Below, in pieces: positions 37,095 to 63,761 of a DNA stretch of 64,000 nucleotides. Source of the stretch: Ascidiella aspersa. Taxonomy: Eukaryota. Positions within the stretch are counted from its first letter, which is position 1, and every line of letters begins with the position of its first letter. Made by a program: the position numbers and the translations under genes. The stretch spans positions 30,442,001 to 30,506,000 of the forward strand of contig OZ004608.1 of assembly GCA_963924565.1 (NCBI GenBank). The letters run 5' to 3'. The notes beneath the pieces are model-generated. The model was not told the origin of the DNA and made no database searches. It was given only the letters and a program-made list of their open reading frames with translations.

Positions 37095-40000
37095 TCAAGT
37101 AAACCAGTACACCAGCAGCGCTAATGCAACGACAAAGGACGCGACCAGGGCGCGTAAAATCTCGCCTTTGGCCTTTTTGACGATCCACGTTTCCTGCATA
37201 ATCTTGTCGGTGATGTTTTCCGGACACTGCGCCGTGTTCTCGAACGGGAACGCTTCTTCCGGAATATTCTTGTCGAGAAAACGACAGAGCGGCTCCCAGC
37301 CCTAAAGCGTGGAGTAATTTCATCAGTTTTTTAGTTAAACTCATTTAAGGTTTTCTATGTAGCGAATTCTGAAGCAGATTTGACCGGAGTTGAAAAGTAG
37401 CGAGGTTGATAGAAAATGGTTTAAAAATAGTGACAATACGACGTCGTATACCCTGTAATTACATAAAGGTTATAACCAATTAAATAAAACAAAGCATTGC
37501 ATGATTTTTTGGGCCCCATGTTTCTTTCTTACTGCCCTTCTTATATTCACTATATCGATTAATTATTTCATGTTGATTGTTTATAATTATGGAGCCAGTG
37601 AAGCCGGATATAAATTAGGGATTTCTTAATATAATTTGCTCAAAACTTTTTAAATAACTCTGTGTGAACGATTTAAAAATGATTTGACTTGACTCAAGTC
37701 TTTAGAACATTGACTTAACTAAAGTCGTTTGGATAAATGACTTGGGTTGCAATGAAGTGTTTTCATTAAGCATATTTTGTATCAAATGGGTTGATAATCT
37801 TAATTTTTGCAAAAAATAATTTGAGTGCTATTTAATGCGCTTCTGTTATTATTTTATTGAGTAAATGCTCATAAATTGGAAGAGTTAGTCAATTTTAATA
37901 GCTTAAGGTAAAATTTTATGACAAGGACTGGACTTGGAATTGACTTGCTTTTATTATGACTTGAGTGGGACTTTTTATGAAGTGGCTACTCTTATTACAA
38001 CTTGACTGGGATTTTGAGCAACCGCAGGGACTGGAATTAAGTTATTTCAAAATGACTTGTTTATAGCACTGTTTTTTATCACTACATTTCAAGAGTAGGG
38101 TTAAACATTACCAAGTTTCACGCCGAAGTTTACCTCTTTAACGTTAAACTCGAACAGTTGATCATCGGGCATCGTGGCACGGACGTGGCTGTTGTGGCGT
38201 CGGTACCATGATTTCCACAGGAACTCGTTGGGATATGGTTCGCCCTTTTGAAACACAATCGCGCTTCAGCCAAAATAACACTTTATCGAAAATTTAGACT
38301 AGAGGGTCTCATTTTACAAAAAAACATAGAGCGCTTAATTAGGCATATAGAGGAGGAGAATTACCACTTACCAGTTTACTTATTAGCCAACAACAGTTTA
38401 TTACGTTTTCAATTGATTAGCTGGACTTATATTAAATCAAGTTGACTTAATTCTAAAAAAAAGGAAGTGCCTTGCATATAAACAAATTTGTTTCTAAATA
38501 TTCTCTCAATTTTCCAACGCAGAATTTCTTAAACTGGAGGTAGCGCACTATGTTTCAGGTTCTCGATTTAGGCGACATAAATTTTAAACTAAGTGCTCTA
38601 TCATATAACATTGTACGTTTTTTTGGCATTTTAGACAGCATAGTTTCAAAACCAATTCAACACCAACCTCAATTGAATTAATTATTAAAAAAAAACAAAG
38701 CTTGCAGGGGACGACAACAAAGGAATACTGTCAAATATAATTATAATTGTTTCATAGTCAAAAAACCGCAAAACCCCCCAAAAACCCAGGGGTAACTAAA
38801 CTACGTCCTGGACGCTAGATCCTCCCACAGACTTAGTTCTACCCGCCCACGCCATATTTCAATAATGAAGAAGAAGTACAGTTGGAATATTGTCGATTGC
38901 TAAATGTTCCAAACTAAATTGCGATAATTTTTTTAATGGTGCGATAATTTAAGAAGGATCAATATAGTTTGTGGTACATACTACATAGTAATATTTCCCC
39001 GTTACGATAATTAATCAAATTAATCAATTTCAAAGCCAAAAAGGTCGAGTAGATCGACATAATCTTGTTTAGGACGTTTTGATACAAAATTCAGAATTGG
39101 GTATCACCATTGTTTTGAATTACTTCGTAGTCATATCAACTGAAGATGACACAAGTTCGTAGTGTACCTGAGTTAATAAAGTTAGACACAAGAATTTATA
39201 TCTAACCACCGATCGTCAATCCTATAACAGTTTTCCAACCGGCCAAGACCCGGCCCTTGGAGACAAAACTTTGATGACTACTGTTCTTACTGAGAGAAAT
39301 GTTTTTTTTTACTTCTAACGTACCACTGTAATCGCGAAAAGCTTCATCATGTATCCCCGAAAGCGAGTCATGGTGGGCGAGAGCTTGCCCAGGATCGCTA
39401 CCACGGTTGTGTACTTTTCGCCGGCGCTGACAACCATCTTCTTGTAGCTCTTGTACCAATCGTCTTCGTCTCGCGTCATTAAAATTACCTAACTGCCAAG
39501 AATGGTAAAACCGAAAGGTAAAATTTGAATTGCAGAACGTTACAATTTAAATGTATAATTTTTCATCGTTATACGTACATACAATATATGGTCAGTTACA
39601 TACGGATTTAAAAAATGTTAAAACCAAAAAGCAACCTGATGGTAAAACTTTCATTGTAATAAGATATATGACATATGTGTTGTCTGGAAAATTTTTAATC
39701 AAGTTTAGATAGGGTTTAAAAAGGGGCGAAATTAAAATGATTTCCATACTAAAAATTTCATACCGAAATGCACAATAATTTTTATACGTAACGTCAAAAA
39801 TTCATAACGGGACGTCATAAAATATGCATTGGATTCAAATCAGTTAAAAAAAAATTAGTATGGACATACTCATTGGCTAACCCCAAAGGTCGCACTTTGC
39901 ACGACAAAATAGTATTAATTTATTTTCGCAATACCGGTACCGTATATAAAATAAGCTCAATATATTATTTTAAAACACTAATAAAATATATTGTTTTGGA

Positions 40001-41117
40001 ACGTTACCTTGTAAAAAACGATATATATTTATAAACAGAACAGCGTGCCGGTGTTAAACTGTATTTCAGACTGCTTTGGTTTACATTGACCACTAGTTTA
40101 AACTCTAACAGTTTGCAAAGCGTGGCCTAAGTATATGCACACATGTGAATTTAAACTTGCCTTTGCATCAGGCCAGTGGTTCAGGAACTCAGGAACGAAA
40201 TTGGCGTGAGGCATGTCAACCACGGCTTCGACCTTGTCGTATTTGTCCAATATTGCACCAAAGTCAGTCCGTCGACCTTCAAACAAGTCCTCCCACTCAC
40301 CGAAAGCGAATTCGATTGCCTCCTCAGCATCGTACACTAAACAAATAATATTATTATCAATATTGTTCTTGGTGATGGCCGTACTGTTACCTGATGAACA
40401 ATAGAACTCAAGTTTAAAAACCCGAGTAAAACCAGGATCAGACATTTTTTAAAGGAATATATATGTCGCCTGTACTGGCATCGCCAGTTCCTACAAGTAA
40501 AGTAAAATACATAGCCTATACATAGCAAAGTCACAATGAAATCAATAAAATAGTAAAAAAACATATGAAGTCAGTATAGATTAACAATAAGTGACCTGAT
40601 GAAACACGGTTGTACAAAAGCAGGTCAACAGTGCCACTTGTTTTCAATTTTTATCACTATGTTTTTAAATTATCATACGTGTTTGGCTCTTGATGCTATG
40701 TAAAAAAAGTTTTTAAACACGTTCGTCGTTCGTAGTCTTCGTATTTAAATTTGGCGGGACAAGTGGTGAAAGAAAGAACGTGCTCATTGGAGTGAAACGA
40801 CACGAAAGCGAGCCATTTTTTCTTAAAGACTTATAGGAGATTTCACCACAGTTGGCAAGTTAAAAACGGTTTTTAAAAAGGATTTTACTCCAAAACAGTT
40901 AAACAAAATGCAGCACATAGATTTGGTAATATATTCTAGTGATTCGCTACACAAGAAACAACATAATATTTACATTTTAGCGTTTGACTTGTAGCGAAAC
41001 ATGTAGTGCAACTCAACTTTATATATAATGTATACCTGGATCGTAGCCAAGCCTTCGTAAGGCCTTCGCCATTGACTTGGTACCAGTCTTTGGAGCTCCC
41101 GCACATATTATTTTCAT
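37095..41117 (-). CDS. Sulfotransfer_4-like P-loop sulfotransferase S1 (246 aa, 5 exons, C-terminal TM)
   Basis: Exons 41117-41036, 40336-40161 (GC donor), 39488-39324, 38244-38134 and 37301-37095. Motifs MKIICAGAPKTGTKS, AVVDMP, WPDAKVILMTRD..DWYKS, YRRHN..V and NVKEGWEPLC.FL...IP...FP..N. Hydrophobic tail ALVASFVVALALLVYWF. Confidence 0.87.
40404..40530. repeat. Dispersed repeat fragment shared with 58094-58215
   Basis: AAACCCGAGT(A/G)AAACCAGGATCAGA(C/T)ATTTTTT..AAGGAATATAT..TCGCCT occurs in intron 1 of both S1 and S3. Confidence 0.75.
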
Positions 41118-41956
41118 CACCGGGCAGCAATAAGCTCGCACAAAACGATTAAAATACAGCAAAAGCAGAAACGGCTAGCATTACATATCAGCAGAAGCGG
41201 CAAGTGCTTGTTTAGGCAGTTCATTTGCCTTCTTCTCGAAAGCGTACTTCCCGCAGGGTAAACTAAGCCAGCCGGTTGCTGGCGAATTGAATTACACAAC
41301 TCTTGCTCATTCTGCACTTTTGGCTTAAGCCAGCGGTCTTTAGGTTTGTTTTTTACGTTGGTGTTGTTGTTATTGTATAATCACCAGGCATTTCCGTGGT
41401 TTTGCAGGCATTACTGTTTTTTAGTAAGCTGTTGCTTTATACGCTTGTTATGTGAGACTTGGCAGCAATTGTTGGTAACTTTATGTGCTTACTGATATCA
41501 AAAAATGCACGGGGCGCTATGTCTAGAATTGTTTTGTTTTTCTCACAAGTCGTGTCTTATCAGCTACCCTCTGACAGTACTTTAAGAAGTGGCTATTTGA
41601 CTGCATCGCTCTTTTACGCTTCCAGCAATACGTCTACTTGATTATTTGTTGATTTAGGTTAGGGTTGAGGTGAGCGTTTGGGTTTGGGTAGTGGTGGTGG
41701 TGGTATTAGATTTAATTTTCTGAAAATAGATTTAAATTACTTTGTTAGCCGGGTAAACAGCCTTAGGAGGTGCCTATGGGCTATTTGGCCGGATCGCTCT
41801 TCACCGCTTGCACCCGTTAGTGATTAATGTCGATTTTAATTATTTTGGTGTCTGGGTGAATGGCTTCTTCCAGAATTTTAACAAGACTATATATGAACTT
41901 GTATTTGTGTAAACTGTGTAGATTAATCTCACAGCAAAAATTGGCTATTTGACGAG
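41118..41956. promoter_or_regulatory. About 840-bp divergent promoter region between S1 and S2, containing the dispersed GT-rich repeat (41586-41805)
   Basis: Head-to-head ATGs at 41117 (-) and 41957 (+). Confidence 0.55.
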
Positions 41957-44900
41957 ATGAAAGTCATTTGTGCTGGAGCGCCCAAAACAGGCACGAAATC
42001 TATTGCAAAGGCGCTAAGGATTCTTGGATATGATGAAGGTACGAAATTAAGCTTCTATAATATAGTCATGCCTAGAAATCAAGGATTAAACATCCAGGCC
42101 TACTAACCCCTCTTTAAAAAATATCAATATTTCACTGCAAATATCATACGATGAAAATATTCAAAACGCTTGAATGATGTTGTACTTAAAAATGTAGAGT
42201 TGCTATTGATTAGGAATTTTAGTAGATTTGTTGGCGCTGGTTAGAATCCTATCATCTGTTTCGTCCGGGCGTTTATATTGCTAACTTTATGTTAAGAAAG
42301 TTGTCCTAATTTTAATTGTGTATAACCCAATGAAAGAAAAAATCAAATAGCCCATGTGTCCTTGAAGCAAAATACATTTCGACCAAACGCAAGGTTACGT
42401 TTCAAAATCCTTGTGGCCTATTTAACATTATCCGCCTGTATAACATATTAGTAAAGACACTATAGAGAGGAGCTTTGTTGTTTGACAGATTGTAAACTTT
42501 CTATTCCAACCTCTCTTATAAACTTTGTATTCCAATCTTTTGCGAAATGTAATACACAGTGAGTTAAAGGCTAGAGAGTTCTAAGTTAAGCGATGAGTTG
42601 GCTGATTATTCATTTAATCAAATTTTACTGATACTTTGTAGTTTCATTTGCAAAAAGTAATGTTTCGTGCTTTAGCTTTCCGCGGTAATTTAACGCAGCC
42701 GCAGTAAACGTGACCCAGTGTATCAATCGGACTCTGTCGACTTCTCAAACGCGAAAGCTACTTGATCTGTAGCGACGTCTAGCGGTATGCAATTTAGCTT
42801 TTAAAAATCGCAAAAAACGTTCCTTACCTGTTGCTGGAAAACCGCAGTGTACGACGTTGAGGAGGCGATCGAGTTCGGCTTCAACGAGTGGGAAGCTGTT
42901 TTCCAGAACCGAGAGCCAAACCTCGACAAACTGCTGGACACTGTCTACTCGAAGAAGGTGGAAGCGGTGGTCGACGCACCGCACTCCTACTTCTTCGACA
43001 AGTTTCTGGAGCGCTGGCCTGACGCAAAGGTATTTTTTGCGAACTGTTTTCTAAAAGCTTCTGCCGACGAAAGTTGTCCTGCAAATTGGTAGATAATTTT
43101 TTGTATTATTAGTTACCTAAAATTTAATACAATTCCACGTTTCATATAATCAATTTTACTTCACTTGACCGTAGCAATTCCGTTATTGTTCGTCGGATTG
43201 AACCATGGTACTTTTTGCCAAGAATTTATAGTATAGTTAGGTATCGAAAAACGAGAATTGGATATCTCTCCACAATAGTAAGGGTGACAAAACATTTTCA
43301 CCATTGCTGTAAGTCAGGTCTTCAACTTTCAGTGTACGATAACTTTTCTTTAATAAACTTTGACTTTATACTTTATGACAGTTTTTTAATTGCTTAAGGT
43401 ATTTATGTAGTACTAGAAAACCAATTCGTCGTTTTTAAGCCTAACTACACTTCGTTAAGCCGATACACTTGACCATTGTCAGTTGCCTTTTCACTGCCCC
43501 AATTAGAACGATATGTCGCATTCACGCTTGCCGAAAGTGCAATTCAGTTTGTCTATATCTATATTACTCAATCTTACAAAACAGCCAGGTATATACAGAC
43601 GTTTGTAAACCACACATCGCAAGCTTTCGACTATTGTTTTAACCAGGGCTGGGGAGCCGGAGCCGGAGCTGGAGCCCGGAGCCCGGAGCTAAGCATTTTC
43701 TCTGGAGCCGGAGCCGGAGCCGGAGCCATTGTTATTATTTTTGTGGAGCTGGAGCCGGAGCCGGAGCCATTTTTATTATTTTTGTGGAGCTGGAGCCGGA
43801 GCTGGAGCCATTTTTATTATTTTTGTGTAGCTGGAGCCATTTTTCAATTTGTGGTGTTAAAGCTAAGAAATTATATTTTGTTCCATCTCCAACGTTAGTG
43901 AGACAAAAGCAATTTTTAAAACTTGCCATTGAATAAGTGACTGGTGGCACCGGAGCTGGAGCCGGAGTCATTGGGTGTATGTTTGATGGCTCCGGAGCTG
44001 GAGCCGGAGCCAAGGGATATGAGTTTTACTACTCCGGAGCTGGAGCCGGAGCCATTTAATAATTGCCTGATGGCTCCGGAGCTGGAGCCGGAGCTAATGC
44101 TATTTTACGGTGGCTCCCCAGCCCTGGTTTTAACCAGGGCTGCGGAGTTGGACACGGGATTCGAGTTCGGCTATCCCGACTCCGACGTGCGCATGCGCAG
44201 TATCAAATTTTAAAACTGATAAGGCCGCAAACTTTAAATTTTAAGAGTGGAATAGCATACATCCGGAATATTTTCCAACCATGTATTTTGGGTGACTAAT
44301 TTATATGACACGTATTTGGGTGGGTTGCTGACTATCTTTGCTAAAGGGTTCAGTTTCTTGACCGTAGTAGGACTCAGCCTTTTTTAACGTACTTCGAAAG
44401 GCCTTTTTTAACGTACAAGGAAAGCTCTTGGTTTTCAATTCCGTTTGATGTGCCACCGAGAAACTCGCCCTGTTTAAGGAAACGTTTTCAATACAATCAG
44501 GTGATTTTGATGGTGCGTGATGAAGACGAATGGTTCACCAGCTTCAGCAATATGATGAACGAAGGCAGTGCAGCTTTCAAGTACATGGTTTTTCTCAGGC
44601 CACTGTCCAAGTCATTGCGAAGAATGCTGGAATGGACGACATTCCTGTTTACAATGACTGTGGTATAGAAAAAGCTGTTTTTAATGCTAAAATGTCACTG
44701 TTAAGGTTGTTCAAGGTAGAATTTAGGATCCTTAGATTTGAATCCAATTGGATTTTAAACTTTGTCGTTTATATCGGACAGAAGTAGGTTGTGCCCAATT
44801 CTAAATACGCAAACTCGCAAAAGTAACATTCCATTGTAAAACGTGCTACTTGCGCTACGGGGTTACTCAAGGTCAAATTTAGCGAGGTATTCAGCGAGGT

Positions 44901-45889
44901 TCGCCAACGGTGTAATAACACTTTTTTGATGTTTTTTTTGTGTTTTCCTTTTAAAATTCTGGATTCGTTATTCTAAATTCGAAACCTATTATTCCAGAAT
45001 ACTTTGGGATTTACTTTGAACTTCCTATCCTTGACTTTATGTCTTTAGTAATAACGTTGAAAATTGTATTGCACTAGATTTACGTAGATTGCATACCTTA
45101 TATAGCTATTTACTTGTTTTATATAGCGAAACTACTGCTATAGAAGACAACGAGTGAAATAATAATTTCGTTATTAGATAAAATTAGTATAACAATTACA
45201 TTTCTATCTTATTAGGGTACACCCAGGCCTCATGAACTGCTGTGGAAAGTCTGGTATAGGCGCCACAACGCTTATGTCAAGGCAACCGTACCTGAAAAGC
45301 AGCTTCTAATATACAATGTACAAGAGGTGAGTTTATCCTAATATATACGTCTAAAAGCCTCCAACCATTGAACACATGTGTGTGTGTAATGTGTATCTTT
45401 CCCGGTATGCCCGTAGGTTGTGAATTCGAACCTCACTGCAGGCTAGTTGTTATTTTAGCCTGCCTTCCTTACATCATTGATCGACAGATTCTATGAGTCC
45501 GTGGTGGATTTCGGTGTACTAATAATACGTAAACCGTAATCATTGGCCAAAAATCAGCTTTAGAAGGACTAGATGACAGTTGTTGAACACCACATATGTG
45601 TGTGTATCTTTCATTGTGCTCCCAAACATTTCAAATGTTATTTAATTAATACAATTTAAAGGCCTGGGAGCCTCTGTGCGAATTTCTGGAGCGTCCAGTC
45701 CCGGATGACGACTTTCCCTTCGAAAACCGAGCGGTCACAAGCTCCAAGAAAAGGATCCTGCATCGGATGATGACTGACGTGTGGGTGGTGAAGAAAGCTC
45801 AGCGCGAAGTCAAAAGATCGCTGCTTCTGATTGGCTCGGGCGTGGGCGTGGGTGTGATGATTGGCGTTTATTTTGCCTACTTTAGGTAG
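41957..45889 (+). CDS. Sulfotransfer_4-like P-loop sulfotransferase S2 (254 aa, 5 exons, C-terminal TM)
   Basis: Exons 41957-42038, 42848-43029, 44501-44662, 45216-45326 and 45662-45889, all GT-AG and in frame. Motifs MKVICAGAPKTGTKS, VVDAP, WPDAKVILMVRDEDEWFTS and WEPLCEFL. Tail LLLIGSGVGVGVMIGVYFAYFR. Confidence 0.88.
43644..44126. mobile_element. Young hAT MITE with internal GGAGCC/GGAGCT arrays, in S2 intron 2
   Basis: Perfect 15-bp TIRs CAGGGCTGGGGAGCC/GGCTCCCCAGCCCTG and a perfect TSD GTTTTAAC. Immediately followed by another CAGGGCTG-starting element end at 44135. Confidence 0.92.
45369..45612 (+). mobile_element. Possible tRNA-derived SINE fragment in S2 intron 4
   Basis: B-box-like GTGAATTCGAACCTC. 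Bracketed by imperfect direct repeats TTGAACAC...ATGTGTGTG...TATCTTTC. Confidence 0.35.
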
Positions 45890-46000
45890 CGCCTGTTGTC
45901 CGGTTTGTCGGATTAGTAGGCTTTTGTCGATGCGGCTTTATCGCCCAAGGGAAAGCTTTATCTTGCGTTTTCCCCGCATTATATATTTATTGTCGATCAA

Positions 46001-46506
46001 CAGTGTTGTAATGACTTAAGTCAATGACTTGACTTAAGTGCACTTAAGTCACTGTTTTCAAACGACTTGACTTGACTTAAGTCATTTGGGAAAAATGACT
46101 TGACTTGACTTAAGTCTTTCGGATAAATGACTTGACTTGACTTGACTTAAGTCATTTGGACAAATGACTTGGGTTAAAATGAAGCGTTTTTTTTTCAAGT
46201 ATTTTTTTATAAAATTGAGCTATTTATCCAAATTTTAGCACATAAAACAAATTGCTTGCTATATGTTGCGTTTTTTCTTATTTTTTAGTTCAGTTATTGC
46301 TCATAATCATACAAATTTAAAAATTTTAATAGTTTAAAATTTTATTTTTTAACAAGAACATGACATGAAGTTGACTTGCTCTAATTATGACTTGACTGGG
46401 ACTTGACTTGTTACGTATTCAAAAAGACTTGACTTGGACTTAAGTTGTTTTACAAATGACTTGACTGGGACTTAAGTCAATTTAAAATGACTTGTTTACA
46501 ACACTG
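46001..46506. mobile_element. Best-preserved copy of the GACTT-rich hAT MITE family
   Basis: TIRs CAGTGTTGTAA/TTACAACACTG, a perfect TSD TCGATCAA and tandem GACTT(AAGTC) units. Related degenerate copies lie near 2385-2700, 5500-5640, 9379, 18800, 26830-27180, 32940-33180, 36627-36950, 37660-38070 and 63005-63080. Confidence 0.93.
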
Positions 46507-47463
46507 TCGATCAATAAGGAAGGTAGCAATAACTATCGAAAAATGTAAACGCTTTGTATTATGTTGTAACTCCCTAAAAGCAAAACAGCAACTTACGCGT
46601 AGTATTATAAAAATAATGGAAGCTTTTAAAACCTAATCTACGGACCACATAAAAATAAAATGGCAAACAGACTTGCAATTAGATGAAACAGCGTTTAATG
46701 CGTCGCAATAAACAGAGTCTATTTCTATGAATTGAACTTTTCGGTCTGTTTGGATTTTGAGACACAATTACAGTTCTAAGCTTCACGGGTCCAGCAAGTC
46801 GATAACCAACCGTAACGCCAATGCTTGTTACATTCCGTTAGTACAAACAGTAATATAACAAACTGGGTTTGCAAGCTCAGACTATTGATTTATGGTGACG
46901 TTTCACGGAGCTTAAAATTTGTTTGAGACCTGCAGCAGCAAACTTAGGAAACCATCGAAGTGGAAAATCTGTTTAAATGTCACTGCTTCCAGTGTCAACC
47001 TGAGGTTATGCCGTCTAGACGCCAGACATAACGTTTGCTAATGCCAAGTGTGGTAAAGTTTACTCATTAAATTGCGGTACCTGGAACTTTTGAGACCCAT
47101 TGGTTTTCGCAGATTTGGTGAAAAACAACATCACAGCTCAAAAGTTGTAAATACAGGAAAAAGTCGACTAACACTAAAATTTATTTTTTATTTCTCAATT
47201 ACATGTATGAATGCTCGTAGAGATGTAGCCTAAAAGTAAACAATAAACTAAAAATAAAAACTGCCGACAGGGCCGTAACTTTGTGAGTTGGGCCATGCTG
47301 CCTCCACCAAACAGTCGCATTTCTTTGTAATTAACTTACTTTTCTGCTGTTGAATGCGAACGTTGCTTTTGCACGAAAAAACTTCTGTGTAATGTTACTT
47401 AAAATCCAAATCTGTGAGGCGCGTTGTTGGAAAAAAACGCTCATATTATACACTATAGGCTAC

Positions 47464-48831
47464 CAGGGATGGCGAACCACTGACCCGCGCCAAAATATTT
47501 TTAATGACCCACTTGTCTCTCTAGATTAGAAATACAGAAATGTTATCCATCATTTTCAGGAATAGTTAAATGTAAAAAACATCGTTAGATAGCACTATAC
47601 AAATCAGGGCTACCCAATCTGTTTGTTGTGCAAAAGTATTTTATGTAGGGTTGGCAAGTCTGTCAATTGACCGGTCAAATACGGTCAATTGACCGCACTT
47701 TATTTAACCGGTCAAATACTCATATTGGAAGCAAATTTTGTAAATTTTTTAAAAATTGTTTTTTGATTTAAACTTGATTGTAACTGTTTTAAAGAATTTA
47801 AATATAAAATGGTAGGGTTTGCCTGATGCAAACATATATGGTAATAACTAAGTGTTTGTAATAGCGAAGTATATTTATTTTGTTTAAAATAAATGCACGT
47901 ATATGATGAATCGCGTTTGTCATAAAAGGAAACACTAGTTGGGGTATACCACAATCTTAGGCTACTTAGAAATTTAGGAGAACCGAATTCCTTGTCTCCA
48001 GTGGACCCTGGTGATGATTTAGAAAATTCACATAGTCACAAAAGTTATGACGAGTAGTAAAAATATTATTTTACTGATGCATTTACTGGTTGTTAAATTT
48101 CGTTAATAAACTTGTTGTCTTAACTTGTTGGTTGTAGTAATGGTAAAAATTACTACAATACTGCTATAGTATTGCTTGCAAGATGGGCATGGTTTTGCAG
48201 AAATTCTTATTGATAGTCGAAAATAATTGTTTTTGTTTTACAAACCATTGTACTTTGAGCCAAAATGTTCATTTATAAATCAAGGTTTATTTTTAACTTC
48301 AATTGCATTTTGATTTATAAATATTTGACGAGTATTTGACCGGTCAATTAACCGGATTTTATTTAACCGGTCAAATGCCCAAGTTTTAGGGGTGACGAGT
48401 AGGCCAACATTAACTGCATTTCAACAAATATGTGCAGGAACGCAGACTAAAGGCATTTTGTTTATCGCTGTAAAACGTAAGGGTGGCGATCCGATCCTTT
48501 TAAGAGAAATTAAGAACTCACAGACAGAAAATTCTGAGGTCCCTGGTTAAACCTTGCTGAAACGCTTTCTGTTGAACTCCTGTAATCCCATAAAAAAAAA
48601 AACAACAAGGCATTTGTTCACTATTTAGGTTCTTAATATTTGTGGGAACCCAAATTTGAAAACCGTCCAAAAACCCTGCATTACCAACCCAGACAAAATA
48701 ACACTTACACGACACAGCAAAAAAGTTTCGCATAAAATTAGAATAGCATTAAACATATGACCCACTTGTGCATTTTGTAGGGATTAAGGTCGTGTTTGTG
48801 ACCCGCGCAACAAAAAGGTTCGCCATCCCTG
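47464..48831. mobile_element. hAT MITE containing a nested inverted-repeat element (~47647-48390)
   Basis: Perfect TIRs CAGGGATGGCGAACC/GGTTCGCCATCCCTG. CACTATA occurs on both flanks, with the left copy offset by about 5 nt. The inner element has inverted ACCGGTCAAATACTC/GAGTATTTGACCGGT ends. Confidence 0.75.
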
Positions 48832-53256: not shown

Positions 53257-56200
53257 ATGAAGGTGATTTGCGCCGGAGCGCCCAAAACTGGCACCAAATC
53301 GATAGCGAAGGCGCTGAGAATTTTGGGATACGATCAAGGTAGGCGTTTATGATTTATATGTTATCTCTAACTTGCCAAATTTCAGGCTAATTTGACGTTC
53401 TGCGAGGTGCGACGTTTCTCTACACAAATTAATGGAACCGAGAGCCAGTACTTAATTATGTTGCCTAATCAACTGCTATTTCCCCACGCGAATGTGTAAA
53501 TTATTATTTAATCGGGCCTATACGCTTTGCCTATTTAACCCTGACAGCAATATCTAGCCCAGCGGTTCTCAACCAGTGGGCCATAAGAACATTTGAAGTA
53601 GGCCACAGACCAATTTATAAAAGCTAGATTTTGTTTCATTTGTGTCACTATATTTAATTTTACAGAATTAATGACTTGCGGACGATTTAAAAAGGAATGT
53701 AAATTTATTGTTCAGCCGCAAGTATCCACGATTGAATAATTAACCTGTTTTGAAATACGTTCTACTGTGTTTTGTTCTAAACCTATTTTGGAGTTTTTTT
53801 TCATAAAAAATTATTGGGCCACAGAATTTTTTTGCAACGTAAATGGGTCACGAAAAAAAAAGGTTGAGAACCACTGATCTAGCCCAACTAATCTTGCTGG
53901 AAGAAGTTCTAGCAATGAAAACCGTACACGGCAGCTAGTTAGCTATTGCTCATTTGGCATATCAATATTCGGCTATAGGGCTAGACAAATGTAAATACCG
54001 TGGTTTTTCTGTAGCCCATGACCCCTGCATGTGTTGAGGAATGTGACATCGTTTAGTTTGTAGCAGTAATTTGGTGTTTTAGTTAAATGCGCTAATCTTA
54101 GCCCGCCAAATCCCCAACAGGACTCAAATCCTAAACGTGCACATTGTGCACTTGCGATATGTACGCGAACCAAAATGTGCACATTGTGTGCACAACGTGC
54201 ACTTGCGATATGTGGCCATAAAGTGCATATTGTACTATCGCTCAACGTACAATTTACAATGTATCAGTGCACGTTATACAGTAAAATAAATGACTTCATA
54301 TTAAACGATTTTTCCGATGATGTTTATTGTATTGAGAAGATCAAGTAATGCATGTTATCTTTCGTGCAATTCTTTTTATTATTATATATTTTTTAATTGC
54401 GTCCCAATTCTATAGATTTCCGATTATATGGGGTAAATTTACTAAATAAATAAGTTAGCAACTGGAGGTAACTAAACCTGCAAATTTAGCCGTAAAAATA
54501 GTTTTAAATGTTCATAACTTTTATCTAGTCTGCTTATGTGGTAATGGTTATGACGTCATTGGGTATCGGATTGTGGTACTTTTTGTCCACGATATTGGTT
54601 ATCGAAATAAAATGTCAAGTTTTGTGCACCCCTACCCAATTGCATGTTGATAGGACCTTTAAACGAAAGGCAACACTTCTTTTATGGAAAATTTATGTTT
54701 GACCATTTTTAATCTAATTCAAGTGAAATATTGCATTGTTTGTTTTTTAAATGACCAATGACTCCTAAAAACAACTTTCGTAATTCGTTGATAGACCTCT
54801 CTGATTCACTGCATATAAAAATATACGAGCATTTTTCTTTATTATGAAATACATTTAAAATGAGTGATTGTACAACGTTAAGTCAGGCCATAATTCCGTA
54901 AATTTAAAAAAACTTGAACACAAAAGTTTATTTTACAAAACCAGAAAATTGAAGGCGTCGCGGCACGCATATAGCACAAAAACAATTAAGGGAACAAAAA
55001 ATACTGACTACAGGGCGAAAACCAGTCGTAAGATAAAAAGTTGGAAATGGTCGAATAGAAATTTTTTAAACGGAAAGCGCAATCTAAACTGCAGTAGCAA
55101 TATTTGCGAAATACTTTAAGTAAGATTATAAACGAAATACTATTGATAGATAGATAATATGAAAATGCGACAGAAAAAAAATAACGTTAACCTCAAATCA
55201 CAAAGGGAAATGGAATTATAGTAAAAATAAATTAAAGATGAACAAAAAATGAAAGGCTATCGCAATAAAAACAATAAAAATCAACTACACTGAAGGATAA
55301 TTGAAGACGAACGTAGAAAAATGCTACAGAAACATAAAAAAAAATATGTAATGTTAAATATGTAATACAGAGAAAAAAATAATTACTGAAAATAAAAAGT
55401 AAAGGCATACATTTATGCATCATCCAAAAAGATAAAGAATCAAACACACACTAGACAACGTTTCCAGCTTTCGTTTGCAATTTTTTCCACATTAATTAAT
55501 TGCAAATTGCAAACCTATTTTTTGGCACGTTAGCATAAAAACTCTTGAATGTATTCATTTTCCCTTTCACCAAATACTTCGAGCAATCAATGCTTGCTTA
55601 ACAGCCCTACAGGCATGGGCGCCCGCACGGGGGGGGGGGGGGCACTTGCCCCCCCCCTGGAATTTCAAAATGCGATTATTAGTATTATTTATAAGTGTAA
55701 TATGTTAAAAATTATACATTATTCATTGACCCCAGTGGCGTATCCAGGGGGCAGGAGTTCTTACCCCCTTTTTGTAAGTGATATTATCGTTTTCTGTTCG
55801 TTGTTGTCATGGTTTAACAAATTCTTCGAAGCGGCGTGCTTTTTAAGCAATTGGGTCACGCGTCTTAATCTAATGCGAAACCAAATTCGAGTGCAAAACG
55901 CCGTTTTTCTTCTTTTGTTTGGTCGACCGTAAACGCTGGAAGTTTTTCTCTTTTGTGATTTGTTTAGGTTGACTGATCAGCAGGGTGTATTCGACAATTG
56001 ATAACGCTAAGTCAAACCTTCTTTCTTTTTTTCTCGCTAAAAACGTCGAGTTATACGCAGTATGTTCCTCGCCGTTCGATCTCTGCGCTAATATCCGATG
56101 TTGGTGTAACATCGACATTTGTTTAACTGAAGCAGTTTCTTAAAAGGAGGTATAATGGTGACTGTCGTGCGCGTTTCAAAATCTCCATTTTTAAGTAATG

Positions 56201-59200
56201 ATGATTAACGCAAAATTGTGCTCTTTAAGCATACTACAAGACCATGTGCTAAGTGTGCAATGGACACAACTTATTTCCCCTCAACCGCAGCTTGTAATTT
56301 AGCTGACTTGGCACACAGCTCGGCGCAGATGTTGCGCTAATCGTGGCATAATAACACCCGGAAAAAACGATCTTCGTTTAGTATTGCAGGTGGTGAACGA
56401 CGTGCTTGTAATTTAGCGCTCGTTCCGTTCATGGAAATTGAAAACTGCGCTGCTGATAGTCGAATTATGTGTGATTCTACCACAATTAAACACACATATT
56501 TCACGGTTTTGGTTTTTTTGTTTGCCTGAAGTTAACGATTGCACACCGTGATTTCGCAGCTGGCGCCTGACAGGATTGTCGACGACGCACGTGGTCGCTT
56601 TTGCTGGACGTATTTGGCTGTTTGTGATTAGTTTTTTGATCACGTCTTGCAATCACCAGTCTATGACGTCATACTGTCACTGTTTTATGACGTCATTATT
56701 CATTAACGTAAGACGAAACATAGGGGAATTCCCTAAGTTGAATATTCAGGACCCCCCTTTTTGATTTTCTGGTTACGCCCCTGATTGCCCCCCCCTGGAA
56801 AATTTTCTGCGGGCGCCCCTGCCTGCAGGTGACATTATCTGACGAGGCATGACATAGCATTGCGATTTTACATTCAAATATTTCCTTTCGTGTTTGTAAA
56901 TATATAGGCTATTTCAGAATTTATCATACAATTTTAAGTAACAAAAAATCACATTGTGTGCACAATGTGCACATTTTGGTTTTGAGTCCGTCTCCAAATC
57001 CCCCTGTAAAGCAAACCGTTTGACCACAATACTATAGCCGTTTCTCCCTATCGTTTTATTTATTTACGTGAAAGCATAATCCGCCAGCCTCGGTTAAGCA
57101 CGCGTTAATCGAATTGTTTGCCGTTAATGATCATATTGTAAATACAAATCTGTGCATATAGGTAGGATTCGGCGACGAGCCTATTCCGCAATTTGCTGTA
57201 TCAAACAGCATTTGGGTAATTTAGCGTTTCGTTTGTAGAGGCGTTCAACCGCCTATATATAATAGCTTCTTTGGAACGGAAGTCGAATAATAACAGGTAA
57301 ATGTTTCCAAAACAACAATGCCGGGCAAAATTGTATTTTCATGACAGGCCGGATCCGCTTTGTTTTGTGTTTTTTGACCTGAATGAAATGTCTCATGCGC
57401 GATTCATTGCTTACATCACAGGGCAAAAGGATGTAAATTGGGATTCGCAACAATGTACGAGATGCGGAAAACTTCGCTTTGTATGGTTTGGGATGCCATA
57501 ATGCGGCGGCCGAGCAACTTTAGGACATAACAGTCAATTAAAAAACTAAACAAAACTTTTAAATATATCATCCCAAAACTTACACGGTAAAAAAATGTGT
57601 TGCCGATACCGAGTGCGCAGCAAGGCAAGTTTATCACATATATTTATAGTACATTAAACGTACAACGCTATAAGTTCTATATGAAGCCACATAAACTATA
57701 TGAAGCCACATAAACACTTAAAATGTTCTTGATACATATTTATAAGGTCCAATATATGCTTTGTCCGCGCAAAACAATTCAAAACAAGCTTTCTGATATA
57801 ATTACTTAAAATTGTATAATGGGATGAGGTACGAAATAAATCATTTATCTTCCATTACAGCACATTTTCGTTTTGGGGTCATATCTTTAAAGAAACTACT
57901 GACTTCAGATTACTCGCTATAATTGTTACCTCTGCTGACACAAAGATAATAAACTAAACAATCAATATGGGTATAATAAATGTAGAGAAAAAGGTGTCAA
58001 CATTTGTTTTAGTGATACGCATATTTCGGATTGTTAGTAAACTATTCAAATAGATTATAAGCCTTTAGATAAGAGAGTGATGGAAAACAACAAAACTCAA
58101 AAATTTGAAAACCCGAGTGAAACCAGGATCAGATATTTTTTGAAGGAATATATTTTTCGCCTATACCGGCATCGTCAGGTCATATAAGTAAAATACGCAT
58201 ACATAGCGAAGTAATAATTAAATTGATAAATAAAGTCGAAAACGTATAAAAGCTAATGGAATGGATGTTTCTCAATCGACATTCTAAATATCCGGGATTT
58301 TTATCGGTAAACCCATAACGATCACGTTTGTAGAGCCGAGTATTAGTCAATGAATCCGTCCCAGTTGTCTCTATAGGCGGCAATATGAGCATCAGCGAAT
58401 AATGACCAGTTAAACATTAACACTTTTGTTACTGAATAAATGAGGCGAAATGAGTTTGTCATGGGACTGCCCTCGTTTTTATTTTTAGTATTTCACGTTG
58501 TGGCGTAATTGCTGTTGTTGATGTCAGGTCGATTGTGATACTGCAAGCTTCACTCTTGCCTAGGCATGACATCAGAGTATGGACATCTGCATAAATCTCG
58601 ATATTGCGCAATATGACGAAATCACTCAAACGTCAGACAATCAATCGGGGATATCATAGTTTTTACGCATAATATTGAAGTAACCTTCACACTGTACTAA
58701 AAATGCTGGGTGAGGTCATTTTGGTAAGATATTCATAGGATAAAATTATTAAGAAAAAGCAACATCAGCCTTTTTCTTTAGTTGTTCAATATTTAGGTAA
58801 TCTTTATCCTTAATTACCTCGTAAGACTTAATCTTATAAGCTTTCTGAACAAATTGAAAATTTTTTTGATTTCATTCCTAATCGTTTTTATCATTAGTTT
58901 ACAAAGGATTGGATAATATGTTTTGTTTAACACTCAATGAAATACCAGGCCTTGCCCAGGTATAATAGATTATTTACTAGTTTAATTCTAAATGGTAAAA
59001 GCCTAATGTTGTACCGTCTATGTACATTGAATACTCTTGCCATAAGCGCGATAATTAGCGAACTAAACCTGAAGCTTGCGAAGGTAAACAAAGTGAAGCA
59101 ATCCGACATGCTTTAGGCTCTTTATACCTATTGGAAATTACGTTGTACCATGTCCGTGTAAATAAGCTAGCCTCTTGAAAATTTGTTTGATTTGAGGCTG

Positions 59201-62200
59201 ACCATGTCTATGAAAGACGAATGTGGCAATTTACATGTAACCCGTGACCGGCTAAAAGTTAAAATTGCTACGAATATTTTTTATCATTGCTCCGTCTTTC
59301 TCTCATAAAAAGCAACTCCCTTTATTCTGTCTGAGTAAATGGGATTTTTTTTCTATATTATCGTATTGCAGCACGTCTTGCATCAGACGAAACACTGTGC
59401 GCGACGTGTTCGGCACGTTGCTCTGTCTCTCTCTTGTTATATATGAACGTATGGCGGCCGGCGGACAAACCAAGCCCAATATTATAGTTAGAGATTCGTA
59501 GTACGTTAGTTAAAACTTTCTACTCTAGGAATGTGATGGTTCATTCACCCAGGTAACAAAAATTATATTCCGCTTACACGGGCTTATCAACAGTTAGTTC
59601 AATCGCGATTTAATGTCGTTATTTTTTGTCAGAATGTGAAGGCTCCGTCTGTATATAAGTACCACTCTTTAAGTAGCTTTTACACAGTTAGTAAAATAGT
59701 CAATCTTTCCCACGCAGTGTTTGACTTCGAAGAGGCCATAGAGTTTGCTTTCGACCAATGGGAAGAGGTCTTTAAAGGTCAGCAACCCAACCTTGACCGG
59801 GTTTTGGACGAGGTTTACTCGAAAAACGTGGAGGCCGTGGTGGACACACCGCACTCGTATTTCTTTGACAAGTTTTTGGAACGATGGCCCAAAGCGAAGG
59901 TAATACGGCGAATTGACCTGCACGAAATATGTACCAGTGAAGTTTTTTGCGTTTTGCACTATTTTAGCATCTGAAATCTACGTATAATATATATGGGCTA
60001 CCAGTCGAGACAAACAGCCACATTTTTTACTTGGTTAACCGCAAGAGCCACACATTTTACAGGGGCAGAAATTAGTATCACACTATTTTACCTCATTAAA
60101 ACAAATAACTTTGCTGCGCTAGATTTATTATAGATGTTGTAGATTAGTAATATTGCGTATAATACTTTAAAGCGATTTTTTATTCCTAGTACCCTGCTTC
60201 GAACAAAATGGTAAGCTGTCAACGTTTCTTGAATCATTTAAACTTTTTCTACAAAATAAAATTTGAGGAGGGTTTGAATCCGTAATTTTGTTTTGAGAGG
60301 TCATGGCAAAAACGTGACGCCATAAAATAGGATTCATGCGAAAGGTTTTAAGCCACCCATGTGTTTAGCCACTTCTGTACGTAGGTGTAAGAAAAGAAAT
60401 TCTAAGTATGCGGATCTAGAATTACGCCCTATCAAGCTAGTGCACGAAACATTTCGTACGCTGTTATGTCTTAACGTCCCCTTAATATGCCCCTAGGTAT
60501 AAAATTAATGTAGAACAACGCACAAACATCTTCAAATATTTTAAAATTTTATAGTTCAGGACTCTGCGACACGTTACAAGAAGCATATTGCTGGATTAAT
60601 ATCACTAACAATTAAACGACACCTTGCAAAATTATATTCTCTATTTTAAACGGTTTTATACTTCCAAGTTAAATTTTATTTTATTTTGAAGCTAAATTGT
60701 AACCCCGCCTGGTATTTTAGTTTACTACTTCAACCTAAAATGTAAAGAACAGTGCCACAAGCTGGATGCTCGTATAGCAGAAACGCGATTATCTGTAACA
60801 AAGCATCTAAATCAGTTCACGGAGAAGAACTCTGCCAGAATAAAACCCACAACTCTTCATCTAGATTTCTCCGAATATCTGTTCTTTTTTAGGCCGCATA
60901 TTCCTTTGCAGGCGTTATTCTGATTATAAAGTCGTTTTATTTTTATGTTGTTCGATTGCGTAGATTAGCCTTCGTATATAAATATTGGTTGGTAAATAGG
61001 ATGCCTCTGATATTTCTTAACTTTATAATTACTCTTGTTTAGATTAGTATTGTGTTTTTTTCACAATCAGTTGAATGTTCTGAGAAAATTAAAATCTTTC
61101 ATACCTGACAGGGATGCGTTATCCAGAAATTAAAAATACAATAAATCGGTTCAATTAATCTTTAAAATGCTATTTTAATCTGGTCTTCATGTTTATGTGT
61201 GTGTGTCCATGTTTATATAAATTATGTTTCCTTCTCCTAAAATGTAAAACAAGAAAGTTTTTACGTGCGCATCTCTAAAACGTTAGCTTAAGTTGTCTGT
61301 CCGGTATAGGCTTTTGTTTTTAGTGTAGTCAATTCGGAGGAAAGAGTAGGACCAAGTGGCTCTTTGATTGTTTGCTTGCCGACACATTGTGCAGATGCAT
61401 GTGCGGTGAACAGGAATGCGGCCCTGCTAAACTCGCGGTCTGGCCATACAGTAGCTCGATAGCCCGGGGTGCTGGGCGCTAACCTTTGTACACCGTACAT
61501 CGCTTGAACATCATTGACACTTGGTTAAATTGTTTGCCGAATGAACGGCCCGCGTGTCTATGTCTAGTCTGGTTCTCAAAAGAAGACGTCATCACAAGCA
61601 TCCAATCGGAAAGAAGTACGATCATGTGTCGGCTCACGTAGTTACCCGTATAGTCATAGCAACTTCGTTCGTGATGTAACAGGCCGGTAAAGTATTTAAG
61701 GAAAGTATTTTTTGCGCGTATAAGGCCTAACCAACAAACCAAAATAGGTGGCAGAGACCGATCTTAAAATAAATTGCGGATAATTAGCCATACGGGTAAA
61801 CTTATAGGGTGTCATTTTGACAATGTATAACATACAAAAGTTGGCATTTTATTTTATTGAGACACATCGATACGTTATTCTTGTTTGCGTTTTTCATATA
61901 TAATTGCAGGCGACAATATGAGAAGGTAAATAAAAATAACAACAATAAAATGTTACTTCATCACACGCCCCTCGAAGTTGTTACACGAAAATCGACCCAC
62001 AAATATTGTTTTGCATCGTGGGGTACGTAAGTTTGCATTATTCGGAAATTTGCGCTACAATATCACTCCCGAACGTTAAACAAATGCCAAATTTACAGTC
62101 ACGGAACGGAAGTTACCATACCGCCTTATACTAAAGCAATTTAAAAATGAGCGACATCATATTAAACAGAATTGCTGCTTTTATTCTACATAGTTTTGTA

Positions 62201-63761
62201 GAATTTAACTGGAAAAATTTGCTGTGCGACTAGCATGTTTTATTCGATTAGACAAGAAAACTACCGAAAATTTGTGTTGCTGGCCCAAAGTAATACCCAT
62301 ATACTTCGGTCCGAATATGTTCGCTCTGCCACACATCCCTGGAATAACATTACAACCCAAAGGCGAGAGTAACAGTTTCCAGCCGTTTTAATCATTTCAA
62401 TGGGTCGCAAGAAGATTTCTCATATGACTATCTACTTGTGCTACACCGTGGCCGCTTGCATTCAAATTAGATGGTGAACAGGTTAAAATACAAATACCTC
62501 TCAAACATGTGCTACTGTCGAATAGGGTCACTGTTTATAAAAAACGTGTATGTGACCTACATTTGGCTGTTTTTACTACTTTTAACGTAGTTATTCACAT
62601 TAAAAATATCACAGCAAATAATTAAATGGGTTAAAATTGACGGTAACACCTATACTTTATTTTGGAAACCACTCTACAGAGCAACAACTATACACAATTA
62701 CTCGTCAAAACAATATTGGACTTTCAAAATACATTATTTTACAACACTGATGATTGCCTTTTTCTCGAAGGTGATCTTGATGGTCCGCGAGGAGAACGCG
62801 TGGTTTAACAGCTACAAAAACATGGTCGAGGAAGGCGCGAAGACATACAGCCACATGAACTACCTTAAGCACCTCTCCCGCTCGCTTACTCGTCTGATTG
62901 ACTGGAGTACTGCGCTTTTCTCTTATACAGTGGTAAGATTTGAACGAACGGCCTCTTTAAGTAGTGCTCTAATATCGAGCTATATTTTAAGTCATCGTAG
63001 TAATTAGACTTGAGAAATTTAGGCCGAAATTGCCGGCTTGCTTTGACTTGGGTCATTCAAAGAGCTGATGTGACTTGAATCCTTGGCAATTTTGGCAGAT
63101 TTCTCTTTATTTAGACTATTAAAACAGTTTGTCTGCTAAACAGAGTTTATTAGGATTTTACCATTGTTAATGACTGAATGATTTGACTTAAAATTACAAA
63201 CGACCAACTTAAAATCTGACACGGCAAAAGCTGACTTGATATGGCACGACACTGACTTGGCTTGGTAAAGGACTGCCTCGGCATGGCAAAAGACTGATTC
63301 GGCATGGCAAAAGACTGACTTGGCATGGCAAAAGACTGACTTGCCTTGGCAAAAGACGGACTTACCATGGAAAAGGACTGACTTGCCATGGCAAAAGACT
63401 AACTTAGCTTGGCAAAAAATGAGAATTTATGACAATGCAATATTATAGACCAATAGATTTCGACAAACAATTGTTGTAAACAGACAAAAATCGACTTGTT
63501 TACAACCCTGAACTTGTGTGTTGGTCGTCGCATTATTAAAGCTAAAGTTAATCTGTGTTGAGGTGCAACATTTAAAAGAGACAAAACGCAATAAATTTAC
63601 CTTATAGCGACTGAGGGTTGGTTTTCAGTTGGTTTATTTTGATAAAGGGTGACGCATCCGAACCTAAGGCGTTTTTGTGGAAGACCTGGTATCGACGTCA
63701 TAACGCTTACGTCAAGTCCGTCGTTCCGGAAGACCAGCTGCTCGTCTATGACGTCAGATCG
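53257..63761 (+). CDS. Sulfotransfer_4-like P-loop sulfotransferase S3 (partial; last exon beyond the window)
   Basis: Exons 53257-53338, 59718-59899, 62771-62932 and 63648-63761, all GT-AG, with the same intron positions and phases as S1/S2. Motifs MKVICAGAPKTGTKS, VVDTP, WPKAKVILMVREENAWFNS and WYRRHNAYV. Confidence 0.85.
53560..53876. mobile_element. hAT (Charlie-type) MITE in S3 intron 1
   Basis: TIRs CAGCGGTTCTCAACC/GGTTGAGAACCACTG and a perfect TSD ATCTAGCC. Confidence 0.92.
55614..56821. mobile_element. hAT MITE nested in 54116-56993
   Basis: Ends are CATGGGCGCCCGCA/TGCGGGCGCCCCTG, with TSD CCTACAGG/CCTGCAGG. Confidence 0.82.
55733..56783. mobile_element. hAT non-autonomous element nested in 55614-56821
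   Basis: Ends are CAGTGGCGTATCCAG/CTGGTTACGCCCCTG, with TSD ATTGACCC/ATTGCCCC. Confidence 0.82.
63220..63418. repeat. 21-bp minisatellite (about 9 units) in S3 intron 3
   Basis: Consensus GACTGACTTGGCATGGCAAAA. Confidence 0.88.

Follow-up and report, generated by a model that had tools for sequence, protein, structure and literature searches.

The window, a 64,000-nucleotide stretch of the genome of the ascidian Ascidiella aspersa, holds a group of related genes with introns, whose products have the motifs of a sulfotransferase and a hydrophobic C-terminal tail. The questions raised by this locus are what family these genes belong to, what their products may act on and how the family came to be in an ascidian.

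Gene models and the tandem unit at gene C

Genes A, B and C have five exons each, and their introns (phases 1,0,0,0) interrupt the three genes at matching codons, in agreement with an earlier note that had described three intron-containing paralogues with identical intron positions. The same models were obtained independently a second time with a spliced profile aligner. Gene A, on the minus strand, encodes a product of 246 aa. Its exon 1 (41036..41117) contains the ATG and the PAPS-binding loop with Lys10 and is followed by the phase-1 intron, while exon 2 (40161..40336) contains Asp30 and the DxP motif with Asp68, and the intron after it, intron 2, has a GC donor. Exon 3 (39324..39488) carries the 3'-phosphate motif Arg-x7-Ser (Arg92/Ser100) with the variable helices next to it, exon 4 is located at 38134..38244, and exon 5 (37095..37301) encodes WEPLCxFL, a predicted tail anchor at residues 226-244 and the stop. 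Gene B, on the plus strand, encodes a product of 254 aa in exons at 41957..42038, 42848..43029 (Asp70), 44501..44662 (Arg94/Ser102), 45216..45326 and 45662..45889, the last with a predicted tail anchor at residues 233-251 and the stop. Genes A and B are arranged head to head with 839 bases (41118..41956) between their start codons, and they may have a promoter in common.

Gene C is also on the plus strand, with exons at 53257..53338, 59718..59899 (Asp70), 62771..62932 (Arg94/Ser102) and 63648..63761. The view of the cluster as two complete copies and an incomplete third was correct for A and B and incorrect for C. Exon 5 of gene C, with the stop and the hydrophobic tail, starts 145 bases beyond the end of the window (L001:1145-1366) and 384 bases past exon 4, and it encodes WKPLCDFL followed by the tail, which rules out a truncated or tail-less gene C. 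Exons 2-5 of this gene, without exon 1, lie in a 9.27-kb unit on the plus strand, the in-window part of which is 56266..64000. A second copy of the unit, 97.7% identical, follows gene C head to tail just past the window. The two copies differ at 4 of 680 coding bases versus 116 of 8,542 other bases, and these differences are equally compatible with two constrained alleles (P 0.92) and with one decaying copy (P 0.32). The second unit is either a real duplication or an assembly artefact.

A total of 53 RNA reads were placed. For gene A, reads were found on all five exon bins and on one strand, and the reads on exons of B and C were on the opposite strand to those of A. None of the 53 reads fell on exon 2 of gene B, and at such depth no splice joints were seen among them, so that the transcript support is thin. 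Run X1 agrees with the window without a single difference; it may be the material from which the window was read and does not count as independent support.

Family assignment, fold and conserved residues

The assignment of these proteins to Sulfotransfer_4 (PF17784) was upheld by the profile search. This family was the best Pfam match for 14 of 14 exon translations (E 1e-8 to 6e-4), the matches tiled profile positions 1-212 in order, and 11 of the 14 exons passed the 22.8-bit cut-off individually. The proteins are also distinct from cytosolic SULTs and Golgi sulfotransferases, as had been proposed, since no exon gave a PF00685 or PF03567 match at E 1 or below, and no Pfam match to a non-sulfotransferase P-loop family was found among the exons. 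An NCBIfam scan of four proteins gave no matches. All nine PDB sequence matches at E<1e-6 were schistosome sulfotransferases, Cpz8 or SgdX2, and the matches after those nine were noise (E 0.024 or worse). The structure model used was that of a Clavelina orthologue (P0001, pLDDT 79.7), a stand-in that is 65% identical to the gene B product. The top 19 results of the fold search with this model were the schistosome enzymes, Cpz8 and SgdX2, and human SULT2A1 matched its fold at a TM of only 0.32.

The motifs GAPKTGTKS, DxP and KVILMxRxxxxWxxS named in the earlier note were seen in A, B and C, and WEPLCxFL in A and B. The 5'-phosphosulfate loop, Lys10 followed by TGT, is present in all three, and a loop Lys or Arg together with the PB Ser is described as fold-defining in PMC11625862. 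The DxP Asp (Asp68 in A, Asp70 in B and C) corresponds in the alignment to residue 93 of 4MUA chain A (D91 of SmSULT; the numbering was checked against F39). Two papers term D91 catalytic and show a bond between it and the hydroxyl of the acceptor (PMC7167500, PMC4618941). Among 92 models from this genome, Lys10 is present in 92, the DxP Asp in 90, the Arg in 91 and the Ser in 91. The position of SmSULT His37, which adjoins pocket residue F39, is Asp in 87 of the 92 models, whereas 62 of 65 microbial-type loci have His there, and the pocket chemistry therefore differs.

SmSULT and its Sh and Sj homologues (4MUA, 5TIV, 5TIZ; type member of PF17784/IPR040632) share the Pfam family and the fold, and they match the orthologue model at E 5e-10 to 5e-8 and a TM of ~0.6-0.65, with the PAPS loop, D91 and the Arg...Ser motif aligned with the ascidian proteins. 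However, identity is 24-28%, the schistosome enzymes belong to another branch of the family, the ascidian loop has an Arg-to-Lys change and Asp in place of His37, and the match ends near residue 200, leaving the ascidian tail uncovered. The bacterial natural-product sulfotransferases Cpz8 (9KF1/9KF2) and SgdX2 (8Y9P) are of the same family, with a TM by target of 0.73-0.77, but they are 26-28% identical, of the Arg/His type and encoded by intronless genes; the solved Cpz8 chain has 212 aa, and its match ends ahead of the ascidian tail. Proteins from Clavelina (LOC143458952/4/6), Ciona (LOC100186200, LOC113474223, LOC100186284), Phallusia and Styela are 59-65% identical to A or B over ~200 columns, all have tails, and are found in databases as 'uncharacterized'; the literature searched gave no function for them. 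Anthozoan and Hydra PF17784 proteins resemble the ascidian ones in Lys/Asp type, length and C-terminal tail, but differ in identity (~35-45%) and in that coral-type loci are intronless. Aspergillus oryzae LdrG and LdrH, likened here by description, are PF17784 proteins associated with membrane on the cytosolic side and, according to a preprint, are placed on lipid droplets via amphipathic helices (bioRxiv 2022.11.24.517872).

C-terminal tail, exon 3 and proposed function

Hydropathy supported the description of a single C-terminal hydrophobic helix and no signal peptide for A and B, and likewise for C. The best 19-residue window is C-terminal (2.25 in A, 2.08 in B) and ends 2-3 residues before the stop, all other windows in A and B are at most 1.0, and no hydrophobic N-terminus or signal peptide was seen by hydropathy in A, B or C. 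The model of the Clavelina orthologue has a helix at 218-249. In the 84 intact models scored, the C-terminal window reached at least 1.15 in all, at least 1.6 in 67 and less than 1.6 in 17 (median 2.16), and no intact model of this genome had a body window of 1.6. Proteins that lack a signal peptide and carry such an anchor are as a rule inserted by the tail, and the sequences of A, B and C predict tail-anchored proteins with the domain toward the cytosol. A tail peculiar to this cluster was ruled out. Of 284 clade-type proteins 248 have one, as do 29 of 40 proteins of the Arg/His type, a set biased for tails because it was collected with a tail-bearing profile. A tail was also seen in 24 of 61 ORFs from non-animal metagenomes.

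The claim that exon 3 is the most divergent held within the catalytic domain (40-50% identity) but not overall, as exon 5 with the tail is equally divergent (38-41%). The suggestion that this divergence reflects different substrates is a weak argument, since the same segment has the lowest conservation in the main ascidian family and in the coral-type and bacterial-type groups (27-35% mean identity). Numerous microbial relatives have the tail as well, and every group varies in exon 3, so that neither feature gives a pointer to the substrate. In every exon pN was lower than pS; synonymous sites were saturated (pS 0.63-0.96), so that positive selection on exon 3 was not measurable.

The description of a local cluster of three missed the scale of the family, as A, B and C are a small corner of ~100 genes. 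This genome has at least 97 full-length PF17784 genes, of which 90 are intact and 7 have a stop or frameshift, and the family includes tandem arrays, recent copies and some broken members. Genes A, B and C are part of a six-gene, pan-ascidian subclade that has only one of six intron positions in common with the rest of the genome family and has orthologues in Clavelina, Ciona, Phallusia and Styela (tree support 100/97 for 8 rows). They are old paralogues of a subclade kept across ascidians, which makes a standing metabolic role more likely than for the fast-turnover main family. The cluster alone is ordinary: three old paralogues in a Pfam-covered family that is already predicted in several ascidian genomes.

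We infer the activity, location and acceptors of these proteins as follows. Genes A, B and C are intact PF17784 members whose products probably act as PAPS-dependent O-sulfotransferases, held by the predicted C-terminal anchor to an inner membrane on its cytosolic side, with small fat-soluble alcohols, sterols or phenols as likely acceptors. The proteins would be synthesised with no signal peptide and would enter the membrane by the C-terminal tail. Lys10-Thr-Gly-Thr would hold the 5'-phosphosulfate of cytosolic PAPS and Arg92/94 with Ser100/102 its 3'-phosphate, Asp68/70 would engage the acceptor hydroxyl like D91 of the schistosome enzyme, and the variable exon-3 helices would shape the acceptor pocket. 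Characterised relatives use small molecules, namely oxamniquine and, for the PAPS-dependent Cpz8, a triketide pyrone (PMC6731281). No measured activity for any member of the animal clade was found in the literature searched.

The genes could instead be general detoxifiers, that is, broad phase II sulfotransferases for phenols and toxins that reach a filter feeder with its water and diet, and with no dedicated endogenous product. The size of the family, its arrays, recent copies and broken members fit this reading, as do the drug used by the schistosome relative and the sulfation of resveratrol by a bacterial relative of Cpz8. However, it is the main family that is expanding, while the subclade in the window is small and old with orthologues in four other ascidian genera, and we regard a detoxifying role as unlikely. 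Glycans are the usual acceptors of sulfotransferases with a membrane anchor, sulfated matrices are secreted in both phyla where the clade occurs, and in protist relatives the protein is joined to a nucleotide transporter of the SLC35B type, all of which would suit secretory-pathway enzymes for tunic or mucus polysaccharides. This is highly improbable when set against the characterised members, which take small acceptors, the Gly that replaces the catalytic Asp in the protist fusions, and the N-termini: A, B and C lack both a signal peptide and an anchor at the N-terminus, and of 284 clade-type proteins just 3 have a hydrophobic window there, so that a domain on the cytosolic side is to be expected.

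It is also very unlikely that the proteins bind PAPS and yield no stable sulfate, whether through sulfation and elimination, as in retinol dehydratase, or in a structural lipid-droplet role. The His-to-Asp change beside the pocket, the spontaneous decay of oxamniquine sulfate and the lipid-droplet phenotypes of LdrG/LdrH, for which the available text of bioRxiv 2022.11.24.517872 gives no enzyme assay, are consistent with such a reading; the PAPS-binding and catalytic positions, needless for a purely structural role, are nevertheless kept in ~90 of 92 genes.

If the O-sulfotransferase reading is correct, the family is a testable candidate list for ascidian sulfated lipids and steroids: the proteins are short, their tail can be removed, and the conserved subclade is small. 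Ciona knockouts are routine, and the subclade has Ciona orthologues. Alkyl sulfates are abundant in ascidians, which also produce SAAF, a disulfated sterol sperm attractant, and a review among these papers terms alkyl sulfate biosynthesis poorly understood (PMC6780655, PMC9265791). No paper naming the enzymes for alkyl sulfates or SAAF was found in the literature searched, and none on the animal clade in that literature, which lay outside subscription journals and bioRxiv supplements. Genes A, B and C are tied to these products only by occurrence in the same animals.

Origin of the animal clade

The animal clade is marked by Arg-to-Lys in the PAPS loop and His-to-Asp near the acceptor pocket, and it ranges over anthozoans, Hydra, Oikopleura and three ascidian orders. 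Its species-named top matches were only tunicates and cnidarians; other animal phyla accounted for 0 of 37 and 0 of 45 named matches among the best 120 in two lists, where most matches are unnamed. Coral-type genomic loci had no coding intron in 16 of 16 cases, found by a ranking by match that favours intronless genes. All trees were made with LG+G4 without a mixture model, and the tests omitted rows that were long or redundant (10 of 71 in the cnidarian test, 12 in the tunicate test and 19 in a later tree). Neither cnidarian monophyly (p-AU 0.55) nor tunicate monophyly (p-AU 0.52) was rejected, and the animal rows formed one weak clade in one tree. With their deep branches poorly resolved, the trees are compatible both with vertical descent followed by losses and with transfer, and a horizontal origin is neither shown nor refuted.

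There is about an even chance that cnidarians and bilaterians inherited the clade from their common ancestor, with later loss in most bilaterian lines. Both monophyly results, the single weak clade and the breadth of the clade's range point this way, but many independent losses would be needed given the absence of other phyla among the named matches, and with intronless coral-type loci no ancestral intron ties the two phyla. A tentative alternative is that cnidarians and tunicates each received an intronless gene from related microbial eukaryotes, or that the gene moved from the stem of one phylum to that of the other, with the tunicate introns gained later. The two-phylum spread among named matches, the intronless coral-type loci and the differing intron sets inside ascidians agree with such a transfer, and the nearest non-animal tree rows are the gregarine-labelled P0147 and the protist fusions. 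On the other hand, the best prokaryote-genome matches are only 27-29% identical, no donor clade is supported, most matches have no species name, and the fusions shift between trees; their position inside ascidians in one tree was unstable, as they fell outside animals in another.

A far broader proposal, which we consider distinctly doubtful, is that these are a third kind of animal sulfotransferase besides soluble SULTs and Golgi-lumenal enzymes (tail-anchored, cytosol-facing and of the Lys/Asp type), acquired horizontally by tunicates and cnidarians, perhaps from alveolate symbionts or parasites, which live in both groups, and that the ~100 ascidian genes make alkyl sulfates and the species-specific SAAF.

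A Hydra-containing group placed as sister of the window clade (90/87) was dropped, cnidarian monophyly not being rejected. Hydra is the only named member of this group, and fragments of two others suggest introns elsewhere.

Gene structures and transcription of A, B and C

Genes A, B and C are ordinary members of the Lys/Asp animal clade of the PF17784 (Sulfotransfer_4) family. They were found by six-frame motif scans and were then modelled by hand. Gene A lies on the minus strand and encodes 246 amino acids, gene B lies on the plus strand and encodes 254 amino acids, and gene C is located downstream of B; A and B are arranged head to head with a spacer of 839 bases. The introns are GT-AG throughout, with the sole exception of a GC donor at intron 2 of A, and the identical layout described in the earlier note was confirmed, with phases 1,0,0,0 at the same codons in all three genes. 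A spliced profile aligner to which no exon coordinates were supplied reproduced identical models. The profile check bore out the family assignment as well, with PF17784 the top Pfam match in 14/14 exon translations, which tiled the profile in order.

The window was placed at G000:C2:30442001-30506000 within the 308.6-Mb assembly, and the nearest species-named proteins in the protein search were those of Clavelina, Ciona and Phallusia. Genes A and B are complete, as previously read, but the third gene had been taken to be incomplete; its exon 5 and hydrophobic tail lie just beyond the window, so all three genes are complete. A second copy of the segment 56266-65538 follows it head to tail, 97.7% identical, and holds exons 2-5 of C without exon 1. 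The pattern of differences fits a real partial duplicate and two alleles laid in tandem alike.

In the 6% of one RNA run that was read, 53 reads matched 37050-43100. Those outside repeats fell in the bins of all five A exons, with first mates on one strand, and on exon 1 of B, on the opposite strand; the bins that contain B exon 3 and C exon 1 showed the same pattern as B. No splice joint rose above the reporting threshold in this portion of the run. These reads weakly support the transcription of A, B and C. High-copy dispersed repeats occur at 43650-44120 (in B intron 2) and 46000-46506 (just past B), with GGAGCC-rich and GACTT-rich internal arrays and a read depth hundreds of times the single-copy level.

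Elsewhere in the window, a 301-codon open frame at 14389-15294 (plus strand) had no Pfam match at E 0.01, and an exon at 11042-11350 (plus strand) matched PF05493 (ATP_synt_H), the family of V-ATPase subunit e. The minus strand at 17800-32700 holds exons of a tandem series of at least three cysteine protease genes of the papain family, and a Propeptide_C1 match suggests that these are of the cathepsin B type.

Predicted active site, dimer and membrane tail

P0001, a Clavelina orthologue that shares 65% identity with B across 201 aligned columns, was used as a stand-in for the spliced A, B and C proteins in the structure work. Its only significant PDB sequence matches were the schistosome sulfotransferases and the bacterial natural-product sulfotransferases Cpz8 and SgdX2; the predicted model (pLDDT 79.7, pTM 0.72) matched the same set by fold, and its C-terminal end is a long helix that spans residues 218-249. 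In the ascidian proteins, the DxP Asp aligns with D91 of SmSULT, the oxamniquine-activating schistosome enzyme, which the available portions of two reports call catalytic and bonded to the acceptor hydroxyl (PMC7167500, PMC4618941). The loop Lys/Arg and the 3′-phosphate Ser, named as fold-defining residues in the available part of another report (PMC11625862), are present as well. Two positions set the ascidian proteins apart from their microbial-type and schistosome relatives. The PAPS loop carries Lys in place of Arg in 92/92 models of this genome, whereas 62 of 65 microbial-type loci have Arg there, and the position equivalent to SmSULT H37 is Asp in 87 of the 92 models and His in 62 of the 65 loci.

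The homodimer prediction for P0001 residues 1-215 gave a score of 0.50 against 0.00 for the best control, with a pLDDT of at least 80 and a contact agreement between runs of at least 91%. In a microbial benchmark, 21 of the 30 solved pairs and none of the 23 single chains attained a score of 0.50; in a eukaryote benchmark, 17 of 29 pairs did so. Since only 1 of the 7 eukaryote pairs lacking an older solved relative passed, the result for P0001 may reflect likeness to solved structures. The prediction lends support to a putative homodimer.

The single C-terminal hydrophobic helix reported earlier for A and B was recovered by hydropathy, the last 19-residue window being the sole hydrophobic one. 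The C-terminal window scored at least 1.15 in 84/84 intact models of this genome, and at least 1.6 in 67 of these 84 and in 112 of the first 122 database proteins. The tail is family-wide and is common in microbial relatives too (24 of 61). Because there is no signal peptide, the catalytic domain would be expected to face the cytosol.

According to the available parts of the literature, characterised PF17784 relatives sulfate small molecules, fungal members are sited on lipid droplets (bioRxiv 10.1101/2022.11.24.517872), and ascidians contain alkyl sulfates as well as SAAF, a sterol disulfate (PMC6780655, PMC9265791). Fat-soluble acceptors would suit a membrane-tethered, cytosol-facing enzyme, and PAPS-dependent O-sulfation of small lipophilic alcohols, sterols or phenols is a reasonably likely activity, while a tie to any named metabolite would be hypothetical. 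From exon 1 to exon 5, pairwise identity among A, B and C was 88-100%, 52-72%, 40-50%, 50-63% and 38-41%, respectively. Acceptor specificity would be expected to vary in the exon-3 segment. The earlier proposal that its divergence points to different substrates was not sustained: the segment was the lowest in conservation in 4/4 groups compared, and it gives no evidence for a difference among A, B and C.

The family in the Ascidiella aspersa genome

The family counts are lower bounds, since they cover 150 of the 158 profile matches and 150 of the 341 candidates. Among the matches listed, at least 108 include the domain start. The DNA around all 108, together with window-type copies, made up 118 targets, from which at least 97 full-length genes were modelled, 90 of them free of stops and frameshifts; the remaining targets were truncated at the end of the DNA retrieved, counted twice where stretches overlapped, or incomplete. 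The genes form tandem arrays spread over at least nine contigs.

The commonest intron set, found in most genes, falls at profile positions 83 (phase 0), 132 (phase 1) and 161 (phase 0), and the window-type set at positions 26 (phase 1), 83 (phase 0), 137 (phase 0) and 175 (phase 0). Only the intron at position 83 is common to both sets, and it is present in 89 of the 90 models. The exception, one intact intronless member (L091:4052-4804, minus strand; G000:C9:19838217-19838843), groups with the main ascidian family in the tree and is probably a retrocopy. Six complete window-type genes were found, namely A, B and C, two others on the same contig and one on C6. A window-type gene at G000:C2:4725328-4749500 (L104, L004, L005) has a first intron of 19.5 kb. 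At G000:C6:11476461-11497805, family genes are repeated at a period of 8,063 bases and two copies have identical proteins, which reflects either recent duplication or an assembly artefact.

The window subclade includes orthologues from Clavelina, Ciona and Styela, with support of 94/91 for its 10 rows and 100/97 for the inner 8. A, B and C are old, as synonymous sites among them are saturated. Three Clavelina orthologues have adjacent gene numbers on one contig, judged by names alone, a hint that the cluster itself is old.

Distribution and origin of the animal clade

Among the best 120 hits of the first protein search, 37 were species-named (25 ascidian and 12 anthozoan), and among the best 120 of the second, 45 were (39 ascidian and 6 cnidarian); the species-named hits of neither set included another animal phylum. 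Look-up of 30 representatives by name, 14 of which had none, placed Oikopleura and Hydra within the clade as well. Beside it were a gregarine-labelled sequence and protist transcripts, and outside it were fungi, a choanoflagellate, an amoeba, a brown alga and Ginkgo. The Atlas clusters closest by features were for the most part from Chordata and Cnidaria. One red-alga-labelled sequence sits among the anthozoan rows, and our guess is contamination. In 16 coral-type metagenome loci the gene is a single open frame, and the two that were checked had gene-poor flanks.

These data bear on the old horizontal origin raised as a possibility in the earlier note, and they agree with it as well as with vertical descent and losses. 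A spread across Metazoa, which would have counted against transfer, was not seen in the species-named hits, but no donor clade was found in the protein searches or trees. The top prokaryote-genome matches were 27-29% identical, with alignments ending near residue 203. A 71-row tree grouped the animals with a few protist rows at 92/92, its base lacking resolution, and cnidarian monophyly (p-AU 0.55), tunicate monophyly (0.52) and one ascidian clade (0.45) were not rejected. We give vertical descent with losses an even chance, and horizontal transfer is put forward more tentatively.

PF17784 is an already known family, and orthologues stand in databases as uncharacterised. Ascidian and cnidarian members are not treated in the available portions of the literature on PF17784, Sulfotransfer_4 and IPR040632, and nothing on the Lys/Asp clade came up among papers that link sulfotransferases to tunicates, to cnidarians, to family expansion or to gene transfer. 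Within the literature covered, neither the tail-bearing Lys/Asp animal clade nor its expansion seems to have been described.

Two further observations concern protist sequences. P0147 carries the label Lankesteria, a genus of gregarines that occurs in the guts of ascidians; it belongs to the Arg/His type and has no tail, yet it branches close to the base of the animals. In the protist transcripts P0172, P0316 and P0197, the Sulfotransfer_4 domain is fused to a transporter of the SLC35B/UAA family, which includes PAPS transporters. The catalytic Asp is replaced by Gly in these fusions, so their Sulfotransfer_4 domain may be a non-catalytic binder or sensor of PAPS.
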